Positions 32,108 to 42,992 of a stretch of 64,000 nucleotides of DNA are shown here, piece after piece (positions within the stretch are counted from its first letter, which is position 1; the number at the start of each line of letters is the position of its first letter). The notes below the pieces were generated by a model. It had not been told where the DNA came from. It saw nothing but the letters and a program-made list of their open reading frames with translations, and searched no databases. Both the position numbers and the translations under genes were made by a program. The stretch is taken from assembly GCA_000503835.1 (NCBI GenBank), contig CP006914.1:157218-221217 (forward strand), in the 5' to 3' direction. This stretch comes from a candidate division WWE3 bacterium RAAC2_WWE3_1 (GTDB taxonomy: Bacteria; Patescibacteriota; WWE3; UBA101185; UBA10185).

Positions 32108-32189
32108 TTTGATACCTCCTAAATTTGGATTAGAGGCTAATTGTACCCTATAGTACATATTTTGTCCAGTCTTAGGGATGTTTAAATGG

Positions 32190-32262
32190 AGCCGATAACA
32201 GGAGTCGAACCTGTGACCTTTCCCTTACGAAGGGACTGCTCTACCAACTGAGCTATACCGGC
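32190..32262 (-). tRNA. tRNA-Thr (anticodon CGU)
   Basis: Reverse-complement folds as GCCGGTA-TA-GCTC-AGTTGGTA-GAGC-A-GTCCC-TTCGTAA-GGGAA-AGGTC-ACAGG-TTCGACT-CCTGT-TATCGGC-T. Very close to canonical bacterial tRNA-Thr; one G·A mismatch at position 27-43. CCA is encoded at 32187-32189. Confidence 0.85.
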
Positions 32263-32370: not shown

Positions 32371-32408
32371 TTGACTTGCGTCAGGTCGGATACTACAATA
32401 CCTAGTAA
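32371..32408 (+). promoter_or_regulatory. Sigma70-like promoter (TTGACT-17-TACAAT) overlapped by inverted repeat TACTA-N7-TAGTA; near-leaderless start of blaI-like gene
   Basis: TTGACT at 32371-32376, a 17-nt spacer, and TACAAT at 32394-32399. Inverted repeat TACTA at 32391-32395 / TAGTA at 32403-32407. The ATG at 32410 has no Shine-Dalgarno. Confidence 0.5.
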
Positions 32409-32409
32409 C

Positions 32410-32808
32410 ATGAGCAATAAAAGGGTTACAGGCAAAGTATTGGGTAATCTGGAATCCGAGGTAATGGAAATTATCTGGAGTCTAAAAGGCGAGGCTTCGG
32501 TCAAATGTGTGGCCGAAATTTTAAGCAAAAAACGCAAAATCGCATATACAACCGTGATGACCGTCATGGCGAGACTAGCGAGTAAAGGTGTTCTGGTACG
32601 ACACATGAACGGGCCGAGCTATCTGTATAAACCCAAAGTTACAAAAGACCGATTTATAGCAAAAGCGGCCCACAGTATTTTTTCTTCGGCCGTTTCCAAC
32701 CTGGGTGATGAAGTGTTAGCTCATTTTATAAAAGAAATCCAAAAGATTAGTCCGAAGAAACGACAGGAGCTTTTGAAGATGCTGAACGAAGACCGAAAGG
32801 GTATTTGA
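32410..32808 (+). CDS. BlaI/MecI/CopY-family winged-helix transcriptional repressor
   Basis: EVMEIIWSLKGEASVKCVAEIL...IAYTTVMTVMARLASKGVL matches the penicillinase-repressor family N-terminal domain. No CopY-type C-terminal Cys motif. Confidence 0.8.
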   Translation: MSNKRVTGKVLGNLESEVMEIIWSLKGEASVKCVAEILSKKRKIAYTTVMTVMARLASKGVLVRHMNGPSYLYKPKVTKDRFIAKAAHSIFSSAVSNLGDEVLAHFIKEIQKISPKKRQELLKMLNEDRKGI

Positions 32809-32823
32809 CGCTTTTCTCGAATT

Positions 32824-33834
32824 ATGAAAAGAATTAATTTAAGTTTTTATGTATTACTTTTATCTTCGTTAAGTGTCGGTCTGGTTCTGACCGCCGTTTT
32901 ATATAAAGTTTCACCTTTCTTTACTTCAAGAACCCTTTTCCTTTGTCAAAAATTCGTTTCGGGCATGATGACGGAAATTCCCCGTCCGGTGTCTAACTTA
33001 CTCATTCTGGCTGTAGGGATAGTTGTAGGGACAGGGCTTTTATCTTTCCTAGTGCAACTTATCAAAACCCATATTTTCTTAAAAAAACTACTCGTAAAAA
33101 AGATTCCGGTATCCCGGGTGTTAGCAGGAGTCCTGGAAAAATTAAAACTTACAAAGAAAGTAGTTCTGGTTAAGGACGACAACCTGTTTTCTTTTTGTTG
33201 CGGTATCTTTTCCCCCTTTATAGTTGTGAGCACCGGTCTTGTGAGATCCCTGACAGTCAAAGAATTAGAGGCAGTTCTGTTACATGAACAATCTCATCTG
33301 ATAAGCAGGGATCCTGGTAAGGTCCTTCTGGGAAAAACATTTTCCTCTATGTTCTTCTTTCTGCCTATTTTTAGGGAGCTTCATAAAGATACGGAGGCAG
33401 TCAATGAACTGTTAGCGGATCAATGGGCGATCAGACACCAGGAAAATTCAACTTTTTTGCGCAGTGCCCTTAAAAAAATATTAGCGGCACCCGAAGTAAA
33501 TTTGGCAGCTGTTTCCAACGCATCCGGTCCGGACTATTTCGAGATAAGAATCCACCGTCTAGTGGACCCCGGCACAAAACACAAACTCAGGCCTTCACCG
33601 GTAAGCTTAGTGACGACCTTTTTGTTTATTTTGGTGGGGTGGTTCTCATTGCAAACTCCGGTCAATGCTTTTCATTCGGATACTATGAACAACAACGCTT
33701 ATCATTCGGATACTATTTTTTTATGTTCACACGATTGGGCCTGTTCCGAGGAGTGCAGGATTAACATTGAACAGCCCGTGAAATATATACCCGCCGACAT
33801 GCTCGTGCCCGAAAAGAAATGCGGAAACGATTAG
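32824..33834 (+). CDS. BlaR1/MecR1-like M56 zinc metalloprotease signal transducer lacking the penicillin-binding sensor domain, with Cys-rich C-terminal tail
   Basis: About 4 TM helices and an HExxH (LLHEQSHLISRD) zincin motif positioned as in the M56 family. Only 336 aa. C-terminus CSHDWACSEECRIN...KKCGND. Confidence 0.72.
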   Translation: MKRINLSFYVLLLSSLSVGLVLTAVLYKVSPFFTSRTLFLCQKFVSGMMTEIPRPVSNLLILAVGIVVGTGLLSFLVQLIKTHIFLKKLLVKKIPVSRVLAGVLEKLKLTKKVVLVKDDNLFSFCCGIFSPFIVVSTGLVRSLTVKELEAVLLHEQSHLISRDPGKVLLGKTFSSMFFFLPIFRELHKDTEAVNELLADQWAIRHQENSTFLRSALKKILAAPEVNLAAVSNASGPDYFEIRIHRLVDPGTKHKLRPSPVSLVTTFLFILVGWFSLQTPVNAFHSDTMNNNAYHSDTIFLCSHDWACSEECRINIEQPVKYIPADMLVPEKKCGND

Positions 33835-33938
33835 AATGTGTGCCGTTTTTCTATCCGGTTTCCTCTTATTTTCTTATTGACAAAACTCAGGTAGTTCTAC
33901 TACACTGAGTAGTAGTTCATTTAGAAAGGAGGTATCTT

Positions 33939-34226: not shown

Positions 34227-35459
34227 ATGAACTGGAAAAGTGTTTTATCAGATGTTGGTTCCGGGGTGAGGAGTAAGAAAGAAGACTTAAATATCACGTG
34301 GCCAAAGATAATTTTGAGCATCGGATTTTTGGCCGCTGTTATCGGAGCCCTTGTTTCAACCGAAACCCTTGCAACCATCAATAAAAATATTGCCAAAGCG
34401 GAAGAAGAAGCCCGTCCTGCCGAGGTGGCGATAGTTAAGATAATTACCCCCGATTGCCGTTATTGTTTTAATGTCGACTTGGCAGTGAATGATTTTAAAA
34501 AGCAAAATGTTAAAGTAGTGGAAGAAAAAACTTTAATTTACGGTTCCCCGGAGGCCGAAGCCTCGATCAGGCAGTTTTCAATTCAAAGAATTCCTACTTA
34601 TATTGTTTCAGGAGAAATAACCAAAAGTAATATTGAGAGTTTTGTTAAAAGTACCGGAGAAGTTAGAGGAGCCGCCGAAGACACATCGACAAGCAATGCT
34701 TTTGTTTTTACCAAGGTCACACCTGTTTATATCGATACCGAAAGTAACCAGGAAATGGGCAAGGTAACGGCAACTATATTGAGCGACCCGTCGTGTACTC
34801 AGTGTTTGGACCCTAAATTGACGATAGAGGGTTTTAAAAAGTCCGGAATAAAAATAGTCGACGAAAAAGAGATAGTTTGGAACTCTTCCGAGGGTAGGAA
34901 AATTATTGATCAGTTCAAAATTACTAAATTACCCACCTTTATTCTTTCCCCTGAGATAGATATCTACGATAACGTTAGGTCAAACTGGGCTAATATCGGA
35001 ACAATAGAGCAGGATAAAACTTATGTGGCGAGAAATTTGTTCTTTCCATACAGAGACATAGAGAAGGGCGGAATATTGGGATTGGTCGATTTGGTGTATC
35101 TTGTCGATTCAAGCTGCGGCGATTGTTACAAGGTCGACACCGTCCAGAAACCCATTCTTGAACAGGGATATGGCGTTCGTTTTCGTTCTGAAAGGACAGT
35201 TGACGTTTTATCCGAAGAGGGACAACGTTTGACGAATAGATACAAAATTACTAAACTTCCCACAATACTGTTATCACCCGATGTAGCTCAGTACACAAAT
35301 CTGCAAAAAATCTGGAACGGTGTCGGAACGATTGAACAGGACGGTTGGTATGTATTCAGGGAGATGCAGCAATTGGGCGGAGCTGTTTACAAAGATTTGG
35401 CAACCAATCAGACGGTCGGAAAGACGCCTGCAGTATCCGGCACGGGGGGAGCACAATAA
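34227..35459 (+). CDS. Membrane-anchored protein with three tandem thioredoxin-fold (DsbA/Trx-like) repeats, each with a CxxC motif
   Basis: N-terminal TM, then three ~110-aa repeats carrying CRYC, CTQC and CGDC. Each is followed by a conserved ...KITKLPT(F/I)(I/L)LSP(E/D)... and ...GTIEQD..YV segment. Confidence 0.7.
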   Translation: MNWKSVLSDVGSGVRSKKEDLNITWPKIILSIGFLAAVIGALVSTETLATINKNIAKAEEEARPAEVAIVKIITPDCRYCFNVDLAVNDFKKQNVKVVEEKTLIYGSPEAEASIRQFSIQRIPTYIVSGEITKSNIESFVKSTGEVRGAAEDTSTSNAFVFTKVTPVYIDTESNQEMGKVTATILSDPSCTQCLDPKLTIEGFKKSGIKIVDEKEIVWNSSEGRKIIDQFKITKLPTFILSPEIDIYDNVRSNWANIGTIEQDKTYVARNLFFPYRDIEKGGILGLVDLVYLVDSSCGDCYKVDTVQKPILEQGYGVRFRSERTVDVLSEEGQRLTNRYKITKLPTILLSPDVAQYTNLQKIWNGVGTIEQDGWYVFREMQQLGGAVYKDLATNQTVGKTPAVSGTGGAQ

Positions 35460-35464
35460 TAATT

Positions 35465-36745
35465 ATGAACTCATTATTAGCACCATTAAAAATTATTTTC
35501 AGAGAGTCTTTTTACAGGCACGTAGCTTTCTTCACGATCCTGGCATTCGGTTACCTTTCCTATTGGCTATTTTACAAGAGCACAACTTTCGAAACCTACC
35601 TGTTAAATATGAAGACCGGGGATTTTGGAGAGTTCAGTGTTGCATACGGCGTTACTTACATATCTACAACAATTTTGACAATTATTTTATCCGGGATAAG
35701 CGTGGCTACAGTTTTTTGGCTTTACCGTCATTCCAAGTTGAGTCAGATCAGGAATATCGGCGCAAATCTTGGGGGGCTAATCGCAGCCTTTTTCGGTACA
35801 GGCTGTCCCGTATGCGGAGCGTTCTTATTGTCAGCGATCGGTGTAACAGGAGGACTGGCCGTATTTCCCTTACAAGGACTGGAACTTAAATTTTTAAGTT
35901 TGGGTCTTATCGCAGGGTCATTATTTTACGGTGTTAAGAAGGTACACGAAATGATTCACTGCGACGATTGTAATGATATCTCACACGACCGCAAAAGCCG
36001 CACAAGTGAAAAAAAAGGCCGCAGGTTTTTTATTTTGCCGCTAAGAGACACTCTTATATACACTCTGGCAGGACTTTTCCTTGTCAACCAATTTTTAATT
36101 GCGCAGGTTTCTGCGGCTATGGGTATGGTTGCTAATAAGGGATTAGTAGCCCAGCTTTTGGGCATACAAACCAGGTCTACCTACACCATAATTGCTCCCA
36201 AAATAAATCCCGACAAAAAGACCACTTCGCTTGCCGAATGGCCGACAATCACTGAAGTTCCGGCCAATCCGAATAGTGGAAACGCACTCGCCGATGCCAA
36301 GGTAGTAATGATTGCGACCGGTCAGCCTTTTTATGCCCCAGAAAATGTCTCGTTTGATGACCCGATTAATGCCCAAAAGAAATGGGGGGCATTTGAAAAA
36401 TCCATAAAACTGTCAACGGAACAGGAAGCAAGATACCAAAGACTTATCGGTACTATGATGACCTGCAGCTACTGTTGCGGCGGCCCTAAAAATGTAACTA
36501 TGAATAAAAACTGCGGATGTGCTCACGCAAAAGCCGTGAGAGGATTTTACCGCTACATGATCCAGAATTACGGCGACAAATACTCTGATGAACAATTGGT
36601 AGGCGAGTCACATCGATGGTACGCCTTGTGGTACCCGAAAGGAATGCTTGAAGATTATTTGCTGGCTACCGGTAACGAAAGTGCATTACCTCACACGTCA
36701 CACGGAGGTGCAGGTTCAGACGGAAGGCACGGAATCGCGAAATGA
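35465..36745 (+). CDS. Cys-rich polytopic membrane protein (TM CPVC, loop CDDC, C-terminal CSYCCGG/CGC cluster)
   Basis: Start reassigned to ATG at 35465 (MNSLLAPL...), immediately after the stop of the upstream gene. About 4 TM helices; GTGCPVCGAFLLSAIGVTGG lies in a TM segment. The alternative overlapping frames at 35320/35345 are rejected. Confidence 0.6.
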   Translation: MNSLLAPLKIIFRESFYRHVAFFTILAFGYLSYWLFYKSTTFETYLLNMKTGDFGEFSVAYGVTYISTTILTIILSGISVATVFWLYRHSKLSQIRNIGANLGGLIAAFFGTGCPVCGAFLLSAIGVTGGLAVFPLQGLELKFLSLGLIAGSLFYGVKKVHEMIHCDDCNDISHDRKSRTSEKKGRRFFILPLRDTLIYTLAGLFLVNQFLIAQVSAAMGMVANKGLVAQLLGIQTRSTYTIIAPKINPDKKTTSLAEWPTITEVPANPNSGNALADAKVVMIATGQPFYAPENVSFDDPINAQKKWGAFEKSIKLSTEQEARYQRLIGTMMTCSYCCGGPKNVTMNKNCGCAHAKAVRGFYRYMIQNYGDKYSDEQLVGESHRWYALWYPKGMLEDYLLATGNESALPHTSHGGAGSDGRHGIAK

Positions 36746-37096: not shown

Positions 37097-37648
37097 ATGA
37101 CAACAGAAACCAAGGTTTTAATAAGTGTCGCGATAGTTACAGTCGCTCTCCTCGGAGGGGGTGTGTGGTTTATGAGTAATCAGACTGCCGGAGAACAGGC
37201 TAAACTAAGTCGACCGTTAATGGGCGAAACCACCCCGGATCAGGGAGCCGCGCACATACCGGAAGGTACAACGGCGGAATACAGCACGAATCCTCCGACA
37301 ACCGGTCCGCACTACGGAAAGTCCCAGTCCGCTGGTATTTACGATATGCCGATACCGGATGGAAACCTTTTACATAGCATGGAACATGGGGCGGTCATAA
37401 TTTGGTATAAAGCAGCCAATGGGTCAGAGGACGGAGGCTTATCCGGTCAGGATATTGAGCGGCTAAAACAGATTTTCAGCTCGGTTGCCGTTAATAAGAA
37501 AATCATGGTGCCGAGGGAAAACCTTGATGTTCCGGTAGCTCTAACCTCCTGGGGTAGATTACTTAAGCTTCAGACAATCGATGAAATCCAAATCAAAGCT
37601 TTTATGGAGACGAATGAAGACAGGGGTCTTGAAAAAGCGCCGCTCTAG
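37097..37648 (+). CDS. Membrane-anchored DUF3105-like protein
   Basis: N-terminal TM. PTTGPHY and HSMEHGAVIIWY match the conserved Gly-Pro-His and His-x-x-E-H-G segments of DUF3105. Confidence 0.6.
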   Translation: MTTETKVLISVAIVTVALLGGGVWFMSNQTAGEQAKLSRPLMGETTPDQGAAHIPEGTTAEYSTNPPTTGPHYGKSQSAGIYDMPIPDGNLLHSMEHGAVIIWYKAANGSEDGGLSGQDIERLKQIFSSVAVNKKIMVPRENLDVPVALTSWGRLLKLQTIDEIQIKAFMETNEDRGLEKAPL

Positions 37649-37790
37649 AATTTGGACCTTCTTTAATTCCGTTTCCATGAAAGAGCTGCAGCACTTTTAT
37701 GTGGGCAGTAAAGCTCCACAACATAAGGAATTTAGAAGTTTCAAACTTGTACTACACATTGTAGTATCTTTTGTGCTATAGTTAACTGAA

Positions 37791-38246
37791 ATGGGTGAAT
37801 TAATTGTAAGTAAAGACATTTTGAAGAAGGCGTCATTAAAAGGAGCCATTTCTTTTACCGTTCTCTTGTCGGTGTACTTCCTGATTCTAACGCTAGTTTC
37901 GGGATGGAACTTTGCCTGGGTGCAGTTTACGCAGTTTTGGTATTACATCCTGACTCTCGCTTTAGGATTTGGTATACAATTTACCCTTTACAGCTACCTT
38001 AGAGATGTTGTGAAACAAGCTTCTACAGGACAAGTTTTGGCTACAACAGGGGCAACGTCGACGGCAGCCATGATATCCTGCTGTGCTCACTACTTAACCA
38101 ACATCCTGCCCGTTTTGGGGGTAACAGGAATTATTACTTTTATTGGCCAGTACCAGGTTCAATTTTTCTGGGCCGGATTATTTTTTAATCTTCTTGGGAT
38201 ACTTTACATCGGAAATAAAGTTTTGAAAGTTTCGGGACGAATATGA
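37791..38246 (+). CDS. Polytopic membrane protein with MerT-like vicinal-Cys helix (MISCCAHYLTNILPVLG)
   Basis: 151 aa with about 4 TM helices. The CC motif sits within a helix followed by Pro/Gly, as in MerT TM1. Confidence 0.5.
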   Translation: MGELIVSKDILKKASLKGAISFTVLLSVYFLILTLVSGWNFAWVQFTQFWYYILTLALGFGIQFTLYSYLRDVVKQASTGQVLATTGATSTAAMISCCAHYLTNILPVLGVTGIITFIGQYQVQFFWAGLFFNLLGILYIGNKVLKVSGRI

Positions 38247-38722
38247 AGAAAACTACAGTTATTTTTATCGTTATATTAATAGTTATTTTGGTTATCGTGC
38301 TTAAAAATAGTCTTACCGTAAATATAGGCCCTAAAGATATAGGTACGCCTGCCGGCACAAACGGTTCTTTCCAAAACACAAATAGCAACAACGGCTTGGA
38401 AACAAAAGAAAGTAACGACGGTCCGGTATCCGTCACCGTTACGCCTCTTGATGTAGGGGATAACGCATCCCTATGGAGTTTTGACATCGCGCTAAACACT
38501 CATTCTGAGGAGATTGGAGAAGATCTGACTGTTGTGTCCGTGCTTATAGATGACGGAGGAAAGACATACAGACCTATATCGTGGGAAGGTTCAGCTCCGG
38601 GAGGCCACCATCGTAGCGGTGTTCTAAAATTTAGTGCTATATCACCCAGACCTAATACTCTGGAGTTAAAAATAAACAATGTCGGCGGAATTTCCGAAAG
38701 GAGCTTTAAGTGGGAGCTTTAA
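38243..38722 (+). CDS. Membrane-anchored beta-rich protein with His-rich patch (APGGHHRSG)
   Basis: N-terminal TM, then a predicted beta-sandwich-like extracytoplasmic domain. No family assigned. Confidence 0.45.
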   Translation: MKKTTVIFIVILIVILVIVLKNSLTVNIGPKDIGTPAGTNGSFQNTNSNNGLETKESNDGPVSVTVTPLDVGDNASLWSFDIALNTHSEEIGEDLTVVSVLIDDGGKTYRPISWEGSAPGGHHRSGVLKFSAISPRPNTLELKINNVGGISERSFKWEL

Positions 38723-38729
38723 AAAGTTT

Positions 38730-39323
38730 ATGAGTGAAAAGAAAGTCATTGTAATAGTTTCCGTAATCACGATAGCTTTGCTCATAGTGCCTACCTTTCT
38801 AATTGGCGGCAATAAAGGTGACAACTCTTCTAAAACTTCGACGGAGGCCGCATCTCTTAACGAGTTAGTTGGAAGATCTGCGGCTGATTTTACCCTGGAA
38901 AGTTATAATGGCGACAAAACAACTCTGAGTAGTCTTAAAGGTAAAAACGTAATCCTCTTTTTTAATGAAGGTCTCATGTGCTATCCGGCTTGTTGGGATC
39001 AGATTGCCGCTTTCGGGAAGGACACCGAATTTGCAGATAAAAATACGGTGGTATTAACTATTGTGACCGATTCAAAAAAAGATTGGGAAGGTGCAGTTGA
39101 AAAAATGCCGGAGCTTACCGGGGCAATTGTCTTACTCGATACTAACCGAAAGGTATCCGTTTCGTATAAAATGCTATCGCTTCCTTCCTCGATGCATAGA
39201 GGCCAGACTCCGGGGCATACTTATGTAGTTATTGATGCCGAGGGTATTGTTCGCTATGTTAAAGATGATGTTCAAATGGCTGTCAGAAATCAGGAGTTAC
39301 TGGCGGAGATAGGAAAACTATAA
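38730..39323 (+). CDS. Membrane-anchored thioredoxin-fold protein, Sco1/SenC- or redoxin-like (CxxxC)
   Basis: Start moved to ATG at 38730, after the upstream stop. TM anchor. GKNVILFFNEGLMCYPACW has C-x3-C in the Sco1-type position, with a conserved His about 85 aa downstream (SSMHRGQTPGH). Confidence 0.65.
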   Translation: MSEKKVIVIVSVITIALLIVPTFLIGGNKGDNSSKTSTEAASLNELVGRSAADFTLESYNGDKTTLSSLKGKNVILFFNEGLMCYPACWDQIAAFGKDTEFADKNTVVLTIVTDSKKDWEGAVEKMPELTGAIVLLDTNRKVSVSYKMLSLPSSMHRGQTPGHTYVVIDAEGIVRYVKDDVQMAVRNQELLAEIGKL

Positions 39324-39326
39324 TCT

Positions 39327-40193
39327 ATGGAACTTTTAATTAGTGCATCATTTATAGCATCGTTCTTTGCGGGAATCGCAGCACTTTTTGCCCCCTGCTG
39401 TATCACTGTTCTCCTGCCGACTTATTTCGCTTCCATTTTTAAGCAGAAATCTACCGTGTTTTTGATGACCTTTGTTTATTTTCTCGGTATCCTGTCGATC
39501 TTTCTTCCTATCGGTCTCGGAGTTTCATTTCTCACCCAGCTTTTCAGCCAATACCATGACACCATTTTCCTCATCGGCGGAATATTTTTGATATTTCTGG
39601 GGATGACTTTACTTCTCGGACAACAAATGTCTTTACCTTTCAGCGTCCACCCGAAATTAAAAGGGCAGGATTTTGTGTCGGTTTATGTCTTAGGTGTATT
39701 TTCAGCCGTCGCAACCACCTGCTGCGCCCCCGTACTAGCAGGAGTCCTGACTTTGTCGGCGCTTCCCGGATCGGTGTTCTTAGGCGGAGTTTATACTCTT
39801 GCTTATGTACTGGGCATGGTCCTGCCTCTTTTCATTATCGCCTTTACTTTAGACAAGGTCGATTTTACTCAGAAGTTCGTTGCCTTTAGAAAGAGAATCT
39901 CTTACTCTGTGCTCGGTCAAAAGGTAAGTCTGACTTTTGCTAATCTATTCTCCGGGCTAATGTTCCTGGTTCTGGGCATTGTTATAATTTACCTTGCCAA
40001 GACAAGCCAGCTGACATCCCACTCCTCATACCAGGTTTCGTTGAATATATACCTGACAAAATTTATTAACGGGATAGGACGGTTTACGCAGGTTATTCCC
40101 GAGGCAGGATGGGCTGCCATTTTCATCCTTGTCACACTGTTCGTTACTTTTACTGCCATCAGACAATTTATAAATTTAAAGAAAAGGAAGTGA
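39327..40193 (+). CDS. CcdA/DsbD_2-like transmembrane protein with two MerT-like vicinal-Cys helices
   Basis: 8 predicted TM helices. FAPCCITVLLP and ATTCCAPVLAGVL lie in separate helices. Confidence 0.6.
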   Translation: MELLISASFIASFFAGIAALFAPCCITVLLPTYFASIFKQKSTVFLMTFVYFLGILSIFLPIGLGVSFLTQLFSQYHDTIFLIGGIFLIFLGMTLLLGQQMSLPFSVHPKLKGQDFVSVYVLGVFSAVATTCCAPVLAGVLTLSALPGSVFLGGVYTLAYVLGMVLPLFIIAFTLDKVDFTQKFVAFRKRISYSVLGQKVSLTFANLFSGLMFLVLGIVIIYLAKTSQLTSHSSYQVSLNIYLTKFINGIGRFTQVIPEAGWAAIFILVTLFVTFTAIRQFINLKKRK

Positions 40194-40199
40194 TTTTGA

Positions 40200-40865
40200 A
40201 TGAATAAAAACGGACTTATTGCAACTTTGGGCACCGGGCTGATTTTGGGTTTAGTTATACTTATAAGCAATTTTAATATTCGGATAGATGTAAATAGTAA
40301 CGATGGCCGGGAGCCTATCGGCAGACAGATGACACCGCAGGCACAGGATGACTCTATGGCGGGTCATCACGGAGGTGGCACACCGGCCGACGCCACTCTT
40401 TTTAACGACTTGGTCGGTAAAACGGCGCCTGACTTTACGTTGGAAAGCTACGATGGAAAAAAGATAACTCTTAGTGAGCTGAAGGGTCAGAACGTCATTC
40501 TTTTCTTTAATGAGGGCCTCATGTGCTACCCGGCCTGCTGGAACCAGATTTCTGCTTTCGGCAAGGATACTGCATTGCAAAGTAAGGCTGTGGTACTAAA
40601 CATCACGGTCGACCCCAAAAATAACTGGAAACAGGCCGTAAATAAAATGCCTGAACTTGCCGGTGCCACGGTACTTTTTGACAGCAGTAGGGAAGTCTCT
40701 AAGAAATACGGAGTTTTAACTCTGCCGTCATCAATGCACAAAGGTCAATTTCCGGGGCACAGCTATGTAATAATAGACAAAGAAGGAACAGTTAAATTTA
40801 TCAGGGACGATGTTTCTATGGCGGTAAGAAATGATGAGCTATCTGCGGAACTGGACAAGTTGTAA
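40200..40865 (+). CDS. Sco1/SenC- or redoxin-like thioredoxin-fold protein, paralog of 38730-39323, with His/Met-rich N-terminal segment
   Basis: About 60% identical to the upstream paralog over the folded domain, with the same LMCYPACW and SSMHKGQFPGH motifs. N-terminal segment DSMAGHHGGG. Confidence 0.65.
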   Translation: MNKNGLIATLGTGLILGLVILISNFNIRIDVNSNDGREPIGRQMTPQAQDDSMAGHHGGGTPADATLFNDLVGKTAPDFTLESYDGKKITLSELKGQNVILFFNEGLMCYPACWNQISAFGKDTALQSKAVVLNITVDPKNNWKQAVNKMPELAGATVLFDSSREVSKKYGVLTLPSSMHKGQFPGHSYVIIDKEGTVKFIRDDVSMAVRNDELSAELDKL

Positions 40866-42109: not shown

Positions 42110-42215
42110 CGGAACGCATTGTTTTTGTTTGCGATGTTTTTCGCTCCGCCATTCTCATCCCTTACACCCTATAAATTTGCCCACCAACCCTACGGGCTGT
42201 TGGTCAAATTTCTGG

Positions 42216-42287
42216 AGCGGGTGACGGGATTCGAACCCGCGACCTTTTCCTTGGGAAGGAAACGCCATACCACTAGGCCACACCCGC
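42216..42287 (-). tRNA. tRNA-Gly (anticodon CCC)
   Basis: Reverse-complement GCGGGTG-TG-GCCT-AGTGGTA-TGGC-G-TTTCC-TTCCCAA-GGAAA-AGGTC-GCGGG-TTCGAAT-CCCGT-CACCCGC-T, close to E. coli tRNA-Gly(CCC). CCA encoded at 42213-42215. Confidence 0.85.
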
Positions 42288-42871: not shown

Positions 42872-42918
42872 TTATGAACCTCCTTCATACGGGGGCAGAA
42901 AATATATCTATACAATGG

Positions 42919-42992
42919 CGGGATCGACGGGACTCGAACCCGCGGCCTCCGCAGTGACAGTGCGGCGCTCTAACCGACTGAGCTACGACCCC
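42919..42992 (-). tRNA. tRNA-Asp (anticodon GUC)
   Basis: Reverse-complement GGGGTCG-TA-GCTC-AGTCGGTTA-GAGC-G-CCGCA-CTGTCAC-TGCGG-AGGCC-GCGGG-TTCGAGT-CCCGT-CGATCCC-G. The T-arm is identical to E. coli tRNA-Asp. CCA encoded at 42916-42918. Confidence 0.85.

Follow-up and report, generated by a model that had tools for sequence, protein, structure and literature searches.

A stretch of 64,000 nucleotides from the candidate division WWE3 bacterium RAAC2_WWE3_1 (contig CP006914.1, positions 157,218 to 221,217 of the forward strand; hereafter, the window) contains a gene cluster that includes an open reading frame (ORF) on the plus strand, 34227..35459, with an ATG start and a product of 410 residues. 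This product carries three tandem CxxC repeats, each predicted to adopt a thioredoxin fold, behind an N-terminal membrane anchor. Since such an anchor is combined with three predicted thioredoxin folds, the protein reads most naturally as a multivalent thiol oxidoreductase acting outside the cytoplasm. In our judgment, there is about an even chance that it is a membrane-anchored, multi-unit thiol-disulfide reductase or isomerase of a copper/thiol-stress module, acting outside the cytoplasm, receiving electrons via CcdA, and keeping the Cys ligands of its two fixed partner proteins, and perhaps of other envelope proteins, reduced or correctly paired.

Predicted thioredoxin-fold units on an anchored chain

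The triple-thioredoxin protein contains exactly six cysteines, which are those of CRYC, CTQC, and CGDC, and successive CxxC motifs are spaced by 113 and then 107 residues. Pairwise BLASTP gave 36% identity between units 1 and 2 (E value of 3e-16), 35% between units 2 and 3 (1e-20), and 23% between units 1 and 3 (9e-9); judged by these comparisons, the internal repeats are statistically real. A hydrophobic anchor occupies residues 25 to 47, and the AlphaFold model described below spans it with a single long helix (residues 25 to 62). The original prediction of three CxxC repeats in one N-terminally anchored chain is therefore upheld by the six cysteines and the similarity between units. It had further placed two near-identical motifs after every CxxC. 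These were found behind the second and third CxxC only, with KITKLPT(F/I)(I/L)LSP(E/D) at residues 231 to 243 and 340 to 352 and (N/I)W(A/N)(N/G)(I/V)GTIEQD at residues 253 to 263 and 362 to 372; the corresponding segments of unit 1 are SIQRIPTYIVSGE and FVKSTGEVRGAAED. A recent duplication or an assembly artefact was considered and rejected, as protein identity between the repeats is only 23 to 36% and hundreds of homologues have the same architecture. In particular, the architecture is not an assembly artefact because 120 homologues of about 400 residues retain all six Cys along with P123, P236, and P345. A second copy of the gene was looked for in the window, and none was found.

The structure was predicted with AlphaFold using an alignment of 77 homologues (mean predicted local distance difference test score [pLDDT], 84.3; predicted template modeling score [pTM], 0.70). 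In this model, as assigned by DSSP, the same succession of elements is repeated three times: strand, CxxC loop, helix, strand, helix, Pro-strand, helix, strand, strand. The pairs C77-C80, C190-C193, and C297-C300 are each predicted to follow a strand (residues 65 to 73, 180 to 186, and 286 to 293 in units 1, 2, and 3, respectively) and to precede a helix (residues 83 to 91, 196 to 205, and 303 to 315), which sets in 2 to 3 residues past the second Cys. For each repeat, as had been proposed from the sequence, a thioredoxin fold of the beta-alpha-beta-alpha-beta-beta(-alpha) type is predicted, with its CxxC lying in the loop that joins strand 1 to helix 1; the model showed neither a different fold nor a CxxC away from the junction of a strand with the following helix. 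As a DSSP helix intervenes between strands 3 and 4, the units represent a variant of the classical thioredoxin fold. The six cysteines are invariant in the 120 homologues, as are P123, P236, and P345, which stand within (I/V/L)PT before strand 3, like the IPT of thioredoxin.

The best Foldseek matches were all multi-thioredoxin proteins, namely ERdj5, PDI, ERp57, QSOX, and the archaeal protein disulfide oxidoreductases (PDOs; probability of 0.99 for PDO 1a8l). The TM-scores were low (about 0.14 for the best matches and about 0.15 to 0.25 for the PDOs), indicating that the three-unit arrangement matches no solved structure. When the family profile was compared with the PDB, the PDO of Pyrococcus furiosus was found at an E value of 0.009. 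The window protein itself scores below every Pfam and NCBIfam thioredoxin threshold (Thioredoxin_3, 18.8 bits against a cut-off of 24.8; Thioredoxin_2, 18.2 against 27; Thioredoxin, 16.7 against 23.5), while a homologue from the Diapherotrites, Parvarchaeota, Aenigmarchaeota, Nanoarchaeota, and Nanohaloarchaeota (DPANN) archaea passes the cut-offs of both Thioredoxin_2 and Thioredoxin_3 (the two scores being 33 and 29.1 bits). These scores together point to a divergent, unmodelled family inside the thioredoxin clan, for which there is no Pfam model.

Close homologues with a length of about 400 residues (54 to 100% identity) number more than 227, are all annotated as hypothetical, and belong to WWE3, Daviesbacteria, Levybacteria, Pacebacteria, and other Patescibacteria. 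When one genome per species was scanned, 29 loci were returned, essentially all from Patescibacteria, with one from a Micrarchaeota archaeon. An exhaustive profile search of 1.84 billion representatives, clustered at 50% identity, returned 1006 clusters at an E value of ≤1e-3, and where members of the divergent clusters are named, they are DPANN archaea (Woesearchaeota and "DPANN group"). According to these sequence searches, the family occurs only in bacteria of the candidate phyla radiation (CPR) and in DPANN archaea. Tandem triplication, originally described as uncommon, is so among characterized proteins; overall the description does not hold, as the arrangement is common in CPR and DPANN (at least 711 of the clusters at an E value of ≤1e-30). 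Among the best 150 representatives, exactly three CxxC motifs, about 100 to 110 residues apart, were found in 139, four in 4, and two in 7, and 55% of the sites have Asp or Glu at the third position of the motif. Relatives with other unit numbers include four-unit proteins of about 480 to 500 residues (P0275, P0276 [L041 2427-3878], P0281, and P0301) and two-unit proteins of 284 to 297 residues (L034 7917-8810 and L035 5110-5964).

Conserved neighbors and a candidate regulon

Gene neighborhoods were counted over 31 nonredundant bacterial loci, with adjacency judged where the contig or flank allowed. The gene of a small single-transmembrane (single-TM) protein lies directly upstream of the triple-thioredoxin gene in 31 of 31, and that of a Cys/His-rich domain protein lies directly downstream in all bacterial loci with sufficient flank. 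Such strict synteny supports the functional pairing with the downstream membrane protein that had been suggested previously. The same trio is adjacent in DPANN loci L038, L040, and L042, the gene order in DPANN being CcmH-like protein, small protein, triple-thioredoxin protein, and DsbD_TM. The small tethered protein (...SMVGGC or ...MVGGC) is thus found in both CPR bacteria and DPANN archaea. Its single Cys is the last residue, and all 32 homologues examined (32 of 32) have the SMVGGC end. The MVGGC tail corresponds to no known signal for sorting or modification, and no relevant literature on the motif was found.

The downstream partner (35465-36745; 426 residues) had been noted for a CPVC in a TM helix and a CDDC in a loop, and both pairs are indeed invariant or nearly so in 109 homologues. 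CPVC (residues 114 to 117; nucleotides 35804-35815) belongs to a GCPVCG inside TM3, and CDDC (residues 166 to 169; nucleotides 35960-35971) follows TM4 and is itself followed by a very basic loop. From the positive-inside rule and this adjoining loop, CDDC should face the cytoplasm. The C-terminal domain carries five more invariant Cys and four invariant His in the 109 homologues, which had gone unmentioned, and its invariant motifs are CSYCC (nucleotides 36464-36478), CGCAH (nucleotides 36512-36526), and a His-rich tail, LPHxSHGGAGxDGRHG. This extracytoplasmic Cys/His-rich domain is the part of the partner that is always retained. The CPVC/CDDC module is present in the adjacent gene in 18 of 28 bacterial genomes and absent from it in 10, and a divergent Patescibacterium (L034) and a Woesearchaeote (L038) encode it on its own; in stand-alone modules, the second Cys pair is down to one Cys. 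The pLDDT is low in the membrane module of the AlphaFold model. A CcdA-type conduit was considered for this module on grounds of homology and rejected (hhalign probability of 0.1% against the CcdA alignment from these loci).

The best PDB structural match of the C-terminal domain is the periplasmic domain of CcmH, with an hhalign probability of 15 to 25%, which we treat as a resemblance and not as membership. The CcmH-like protein ends in LPGMVGGC in DPANN and in the divergent Patescibacterium and in LPHxSHGGAGxDGRHG in the window lineage, and in DPANN the small protein shares with the CcmH-like protein an end of the form ...LPxMVGGC. As a Met/Cys tail is exchanged here for several His, a metal-binding tail is suggested rather than a redox cysteine. 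The partner profile returned nothing meaningful from PDB sequences. The partner, the small protein, the 4-TM protein encoded farther downstream, and the stand-alone versions have no Pfam or NCBIfam match, and for the partner families neither a Pfam model nor literature was found.

Copper genes are frequent around the trio. Within 8 kb, 21 of the 31 bacterial loci encode one or more of CopA, CsoR, YHS, cupredoxin, multicopper oxidase, DUF305, and DUF2933, and the CopA of bacterial loci carries a heavy-metal-binding domain. The window cluster encodes a protein with a YHS domain, a metal-binding type that usually occurs near copper ATPases. Among DPANN, locus L038 has a multicopper oxidase and L040 has CopG/DUF411 and a cupredoxin. 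The triple-thioredoxin protein is fused to a C-terminal cupredoxin in 4 of 150 cluster representatives (P0334 [L040 6001-7470], P0280, P0341, and P0409). One fusion, checked by Pfam, scored 50.1 bits with Cupredoxin_1 and 41.7 bits with COX2 and carries the CuA-like CSVYCGQGHSSM motif; across the four, one site is CuA-like (CxxxCxxxHxxM) and three are type-1-like (His...Cys...His...Met). His-rich N termini occur in many DPANN members. The link to metal handling in the original prediction is supported by the neighboring genes and fusions, for copper specifically.

Genes for a supply of reductant accompany the copper genes. In the window, such a module (38679..40865, plus strand) places CcdA behind the third of the palindromes described below, between two redoxins. 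Of the 31 bacterial loci, 21 contain CcdA or a second CcdA-like gene in the flanks that were retrieved. In three DPANN loci, the triple-thioredoxin gene is directly followed by a DsbD_TM gene, and in L003, genes for thioredoxin and thioredoxin reductase adjoin the cluster. The window redoxins score as AhpC/TSA yet have a Sco-like CxxxC (CYPAC); a MAGHHGGG stretch occurs in one, and a conserved His is found further on in both. Separate DsbA-like genes were seen in some clusters. DUF3105 was also found in a DPANN locus, and no relevant literature on it was found. The orphan pair behind the third palindrome looks like another metal-handling pair. Searches for literature on CPR or Patescibacteria with thioredoxin, copper, or CcdA and on multi-thioredoxin membrane proteins found nothing relevant.

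The cluster also appears to share its regulation. The window has exactly three copies of TACTA-N7-TAGTA, compared with an expectation of 0.04, with the consensus TACTACA-N3-TGTAGTA, and each palindrome overlaps a promoter-like -10 element (Table 1). Related loci (456 kb) contain 54 exact sites, 48 of them just upstream of the same genes, and loci without the repressor/protease pair contain zero. Of 32 related nonredundant loci searched, 24 keep the palindrome at the start of the same genes (27 of 37 with duplicates included). Palindrome 1, whose first base is 19 nucleotides from the repressor start codon, keeps its position in 10 related loci, palindrome 2 in 21 to 22, and palindrome 3 in 13. 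We regard the palindrome as a candidate operator of the BlaI-like repressor, which would join three promoters in one regulon. The classical cop box/BlaI core, TACAnnTGTA, had no match in the window, and its half-site spacing differs.

A Penicillinase_R repressor and an M56 protease with an HExxH motif are encoded together, with palindromes at the promoters, and a two-protein switch of the BlaI/BlaR1 type is predicted. In the M56 protein, a short Cys-bearing C-terminal tail (CSHDWACSEEC...C) replaces the penicillin-binding sensor, and the tail motif CSxDxxCxxxC is retained in 3 of 4 compared genomes. The repressor likely starts at ATG 32410 and not at TTG 32371. The TTG, which is the mechanical ORF start, falls inside the promoter; the ATG lies about 3 nucleotides past the operator and about 10 nucleotides past the -10 element, so that the mRNA would be leaderless or nearly so.

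Table 1. Features of the gene cluster in window coordinates, with the loci of other genomes used for comparison
Feature	Position	Strand	Details
tRNA genes around the cluster	32187-32262, 42213-42287, 42916-42992	-	
Operator-like palindrome 1, TACTACAATACCTAGTA	32391..32407	+	On -10 of promoter-like 32371-32399; ends 3 nt before repressor ATG
BlaI/MecI/CopY-family repressor	32410..32808	+	Penicillinase_R, 96.2 bits (cut-off 22.6); without C-terminal Cys motif
BlaR1-like M56 membrane metalloprotease	32824..33834	+	HEQSH; Peptidase_M56, 46.7 bits (cut-off 31)
Operator-like palindrome 2, TACTACACTGAGTAGTA	33898..33914	+	On -10 of promoter-like 33877-33906; 41 nt upstream of the small gene heading the operon
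Small single-TM protein, 87 aa	33939..34202	+	Ser/Thr/Gly-rich linker; tail P(E/Q)SMVGGC-COOH
Triple-thioredoxin protein, aa 1-62	34227..34412	+	Short N-terminal tail, TM anchor, helical stalk (AlphaFold helix)
Predicted thioredoxin-fold unit 1, aa 63-177	34413..34757	+	CRYC; loop Pro123 in RIPT
CRYC, aa 77-80	34455-34466	+	Unit 1
Predicted thioredoxin-fold unit 2, aa 178-284	34758..35078	+	CTQC; KITKLPTFILSPE (Pro236); NWANIGTIEQD
CTQC, aa 190-193	34794-34805	+	Unit 2
Predicted thioredoxin-fold unit 3, aa 285-397	35079..35459	+	CGDC; KITKLPTILLSPD (Pro345); IWNGVGTIEQD; then disordered tail, aa 398-410, and stop
CGDC, aa 297-300	35115-35126	+	Unit 3
Partner, N-terminal membrane module, aa 1-224	35465..36136	+	About 5 TM helices; orphan family
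Partner, extracytoplasmic C-terminal domain, aa 225-426	36137..36745	+	
CcmH-like tail	36686-36742		Compared with L034 6814-7521, L038 4906-5727, L040 4799-5656, L042 4607-5446
Small membrane protein, 115 aa	36742..37089	+	Kept in most related loci
Membrane-anchored DUF3105 protein	37097..37648	+	His-rich HSMEHG; DUF3105, 96.2 bits
Operator-like palindrome 3, TACTACACATTGTAGTA	37750..37766	+	41 nt upstream of the unit ending with CcdA and redoxins
Conserved orphan 4-TM protein	37791-38246	+	SCCAHY inside a helix
Conserved orphan secreted/anchored protein, 159 aa	38243-38722	+	GGHHRSG; weak DUF5643 match
AhpC/TSA-type redoxin	38679-39323	+	CYPAC
CcdA/DsbD_TM membrane protein	39327-40193	+	
Second redoxin	40200-40865	+	Paralogue, 62% identical to the first
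YHS-domain small protein, 69 aa	40885..41094	+	
Small MVGGC-type protein in other loci	L034 7576-7914, L038 5758-5985, L040 5747-5965, L042 5498-5716		

Proposed mechanism and competing explanations

For an extracytoplasmic reductase or isomerase, we infer the membrane topology, direction of electron flow, substrates, inducing signal, repressor binding, and proteolytic switching as follows. A BlaI-type repressor would sit on the TACTACA-N3-TGTAGTA operators of three promoters, the first driving the repressor and BlaR-like protease genes, the second driving the small protein, triple-thioredoxin protein, Cys-His membrane protein, and DUF3105 genes, and the third driving the genes of the 4-TM protein, 159-residue protein, redoxin, CcdA, redoxin, and YHS protein. 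The BlaR-like M56 protease, with its Cys-bearing outer tail, would sense stress and remove the repressor. CcdA-type proteins would then pass electrons from cytoplasmic thioredoxin outward, and the three CxxC units would spend them on keeping extracytoplasmic thiols reduced or correctly paired. First among the candidate substrates are the last Cys of the tethered ...SMVGGC protein and, in the CcmH-like domain, its CxxCC/CxC cluster; both of these fixed neighbors would most likely bind Cu(I). More generally, the system may repair envelope proteins misoxidized by copper, and the tandem units would lend reach and multivalency. The structural proposal, that a type II-anchored protein exposes three catalytically competent thioredoxin-fold units outside the membrane, is a bacterial counterpart of PDO and PDI by convergence or very distant relationship, and belongs to a CPR and DPANN module that would protect or service the envelope under copper/thiol stress, is in our view evenly balanced.

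Several points weigh against this assignment. The direction of electron flow is read from the gene neighborhood alone. The outside topology is deduced from the single N-terminal anchor, the nearby CcdA, and N-glycosylation sequons, which are abundant in the archaeal homologues, and the flanking-charge bias of the anchor is weak. The copper link consists of guilt by association and rare fusions, and no copper ATPase was found in the 64-kb window. The subthreshold thioredoxin scores and the helix between strands 3 and 4 count on the same side, and no literature on the triple-thioredoxin family was found. Furthermore, we know of no calibrated redox precedent for these CxxC dipeptides.

The CxxC motifs might instead serve mainly as sites for Cu(I) or other thiophilic metals, forming a relay that links the Met/Cys tail of the small protein with the Cys/His domain and with the GCxxCG membrane module for sequestration, export, or delivery to cupredoxins or multicopper oxidase. 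Precedents exist in the CxxC sites of the MerP/CopZ type, in the Cu(I)-binding ScsC, and in MerT/MerC-like relays, and we take the GCxxCG in a TM helix of the partner, with its probably cytoplasmic Cys pair, to recall the layout of a mercury transporter. The copper gene neighborhood and cupredoxin fusions would suit such a shuttle, as would partner tails made of classic soft-metal ligands with a Cys/Met-to-His exchange and the His-rich cytoplasmic N termini of many DPANN homologues. However, every unit keeps the full thiol-disulfide oxidoreductase signature of CxxC and loop Pro, the family consensus shows no extra conserved His or Met near the CxxC, and CcdA-type carriers, the tightest extra neighbors in DPANN loci, fit redox turnover. 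We consider a metal shuttle unlikely as the main function, and redox and metal-shuttle functions are not mutually exclusive. A dedicated maturation factor of the TlpA/Sco type, which would be no stress enzyme and would reduce the metal-binding Cys of copper proteins outside the cytoplasm (cupredoxins, CuA-like sites, and multicopper oxidase) before metallation, is quite improbable. The four cupredoxin fusions, one with a CuA-like site, the cupredoxin and multicopper oxidase genes of the same clusters, and the Sco-like CxxxC of both window redoxins agree with it; in contrast, the window cluster and many relatives have no cupredoxin or multicopper oxidase within reach, and an inducible switch of the BlaI/BlaR type with CsoR and CopA efflux neighbors fits detoxification better.

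The original prediction cast the downstream protein as a redox partner like DsbB or VKOR, which would make the triple-thioredoxin protein a DsbA-like oxidase that introduces disulfides and is reoxidized by its neighbor. The strict adjacency of both genes and the two invariant Cys pairs of the membrane protein are in keeping with such a pair. Most CPR lack quinones, and CPR would need some quinone-independent oxidase. The proposed partner role was nevertheless not borne out, and we regard the oxidase as very unlikely. The Cys-pair membrane module is missing from the neighboring gene in 10 of the 28 genomes. DsbB and VKOR require both Cys pairs outside, whereas CDDC is predicted to be cytoplasmic and is reduced to a single Cys in stand-alone versions; the partner has no similarity to DsbB, VKOR, or any Pfam or PDB family. 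The units, at about 107 to 113 residues, lack the helical insertion of about 65 residues typical of DsbA, separate DsbA-like genes accompany some clusters, and the consistent neighbors are reductive DsbD_TM/CcdA genes.

Returning to the reductase or isomerase, a wider proposal can be made only tentatively: the protein could be the enzymatic core of an undescribed CPR/DPANN envelope system that, in ultra-small cells lacking quinones, replaces Dsb/VKOR and periplasmic copper chaperones, in which tethered Cys arms would capture Cu(I) or buffer thiols and be recycled by the multi-thioredoxin protein with electrons from CcdA. Equally doubtful, at present, is that this envelope system would be built almost entirely from orphan families, namely the ...MVGGC peptide, the CcmH-like domain, the GCxxCG membrane protein, and DUF3105.

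Known systems and genomic setting

The triple-thioredoxin protein resembles PDO and PDI in its working and DsbD-DsbC, ScsB-ScsC, and CcdA-CcmG-CcmH in system logic. It is a member of none of these families, because it misses TIGR02187 widely (20.6 bits against the PDO cut-off of 185), lacks the DsbA insertion, and has a different arrangement between units. The PDOs (P. furiosus 1a8l, Pyrococcus horikoshii 1j08, and Aquifex aeolicus 2ayt; TIGR02187) have two units, are soluble and cytoplasmic, and form one continuous sheet, whereas the window protein has three units (two or four in some relatives) that are arranged differently, and it is anchored and probably outside. As in PDI, ERp57, ERp72, ERp46/TXNDC5, and ERdj5, thioredoxin domains would act in series in an oxidizing compartment, in multivalent thiol-disulfide exchange; ERp46 likewise has three catalytic units (PMC8024706). 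In contrast, PDI has noncatalytic b domains and CGHC, while the window family has Cx(D/E/Q)C, an N-terminal anchor, and prokaryotic partners, and no sequence relationship between the two is detectable.

In ScsB-ScsC-ScsD of Salmonella, Proteus, and Caulobacter and in DsbD-DsbC of Escherichia coli, a membrane carrier of the DsbD/CcdA type supplies reductant to thioredoxin-fold proteins outside the cytoplasm, and these proteins are needed for copper tolerance. The window family is similar in that its genes lie among copper genes with a membrane reductant carrier nearby. ScsC and DsbC are single thioredoxin domains that oligomerize via separate domains, whereas multivalency would arise here from tandem repeats. 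Furthermore, the SMVGGC protein, the CcmH-like domain, and DUF3105 have no counterpart in the Scs and Dsb systems, which are under regulation of the CpxR/CueR type and not, as predicted here, of the BlaI/BlaR type. Compared with the route from CcdA/DsbD through CcmG to CcmH, the partner has CxxCC...CxCxH and metal-type tails, not LRCxxC, and no heme-handling genes were found in any cluster examined. The regulatory genes share with BlaI/BlaR1, MecI/MecR1, and CopY a Penicillinase_R repressor, an M56 HExxH protease, and a TACA...TGTA palindrome core overlapping the promoter. They differ from BlaR1 and MecR1 in having a short Cys-bearing tail as the sensor instead of a penicillin-binding domain and from CopY in that the repressor is without the CxCx4CxC copper site and the palindrome spacing is unlike that of the cop box, TACAnnTGTA.

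The cluster may represent a new system common to CPR and DPANN. These groups make up a large share of microbial diversity, and their surface cysteine chemistry and handling of toxic metals are essentially unexplored; most CPR and DPANN lack the respiratory quinones that the classical disulfide machinery needs. One "hypothetical protein" now becomes a defined, testable system, with a family, two obligate partners, a link to CcdA and copper across both domains, and a predicted operator-defined regulon. This outcome gives targets for biochemistry and for annotation, including several new protein families.

The cluster (about 32.4 to 41.1 kb of the window) is bracketed by tRNA genes, tRNA-Thr to its left and tRNA-Gly plus tRNA-Asp to its right. 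The genes flanking it differ among genomes, which is compatible with a mobile island, and its presence in DPANN archaea as well suggests cross-domain transfer; sharing of the gene cluster between CPR and DPANN is likely. Several public metagenome-assembled genomes titled "uncultured Gammaproteobacteria" (loci L008, L016, L017, L019, L020, L027, L030, L031, and L033) carry a CPR-type cluster, with 51 to 69% identity to the window protein, and the titles of these records are probably taxonomic mislabels.

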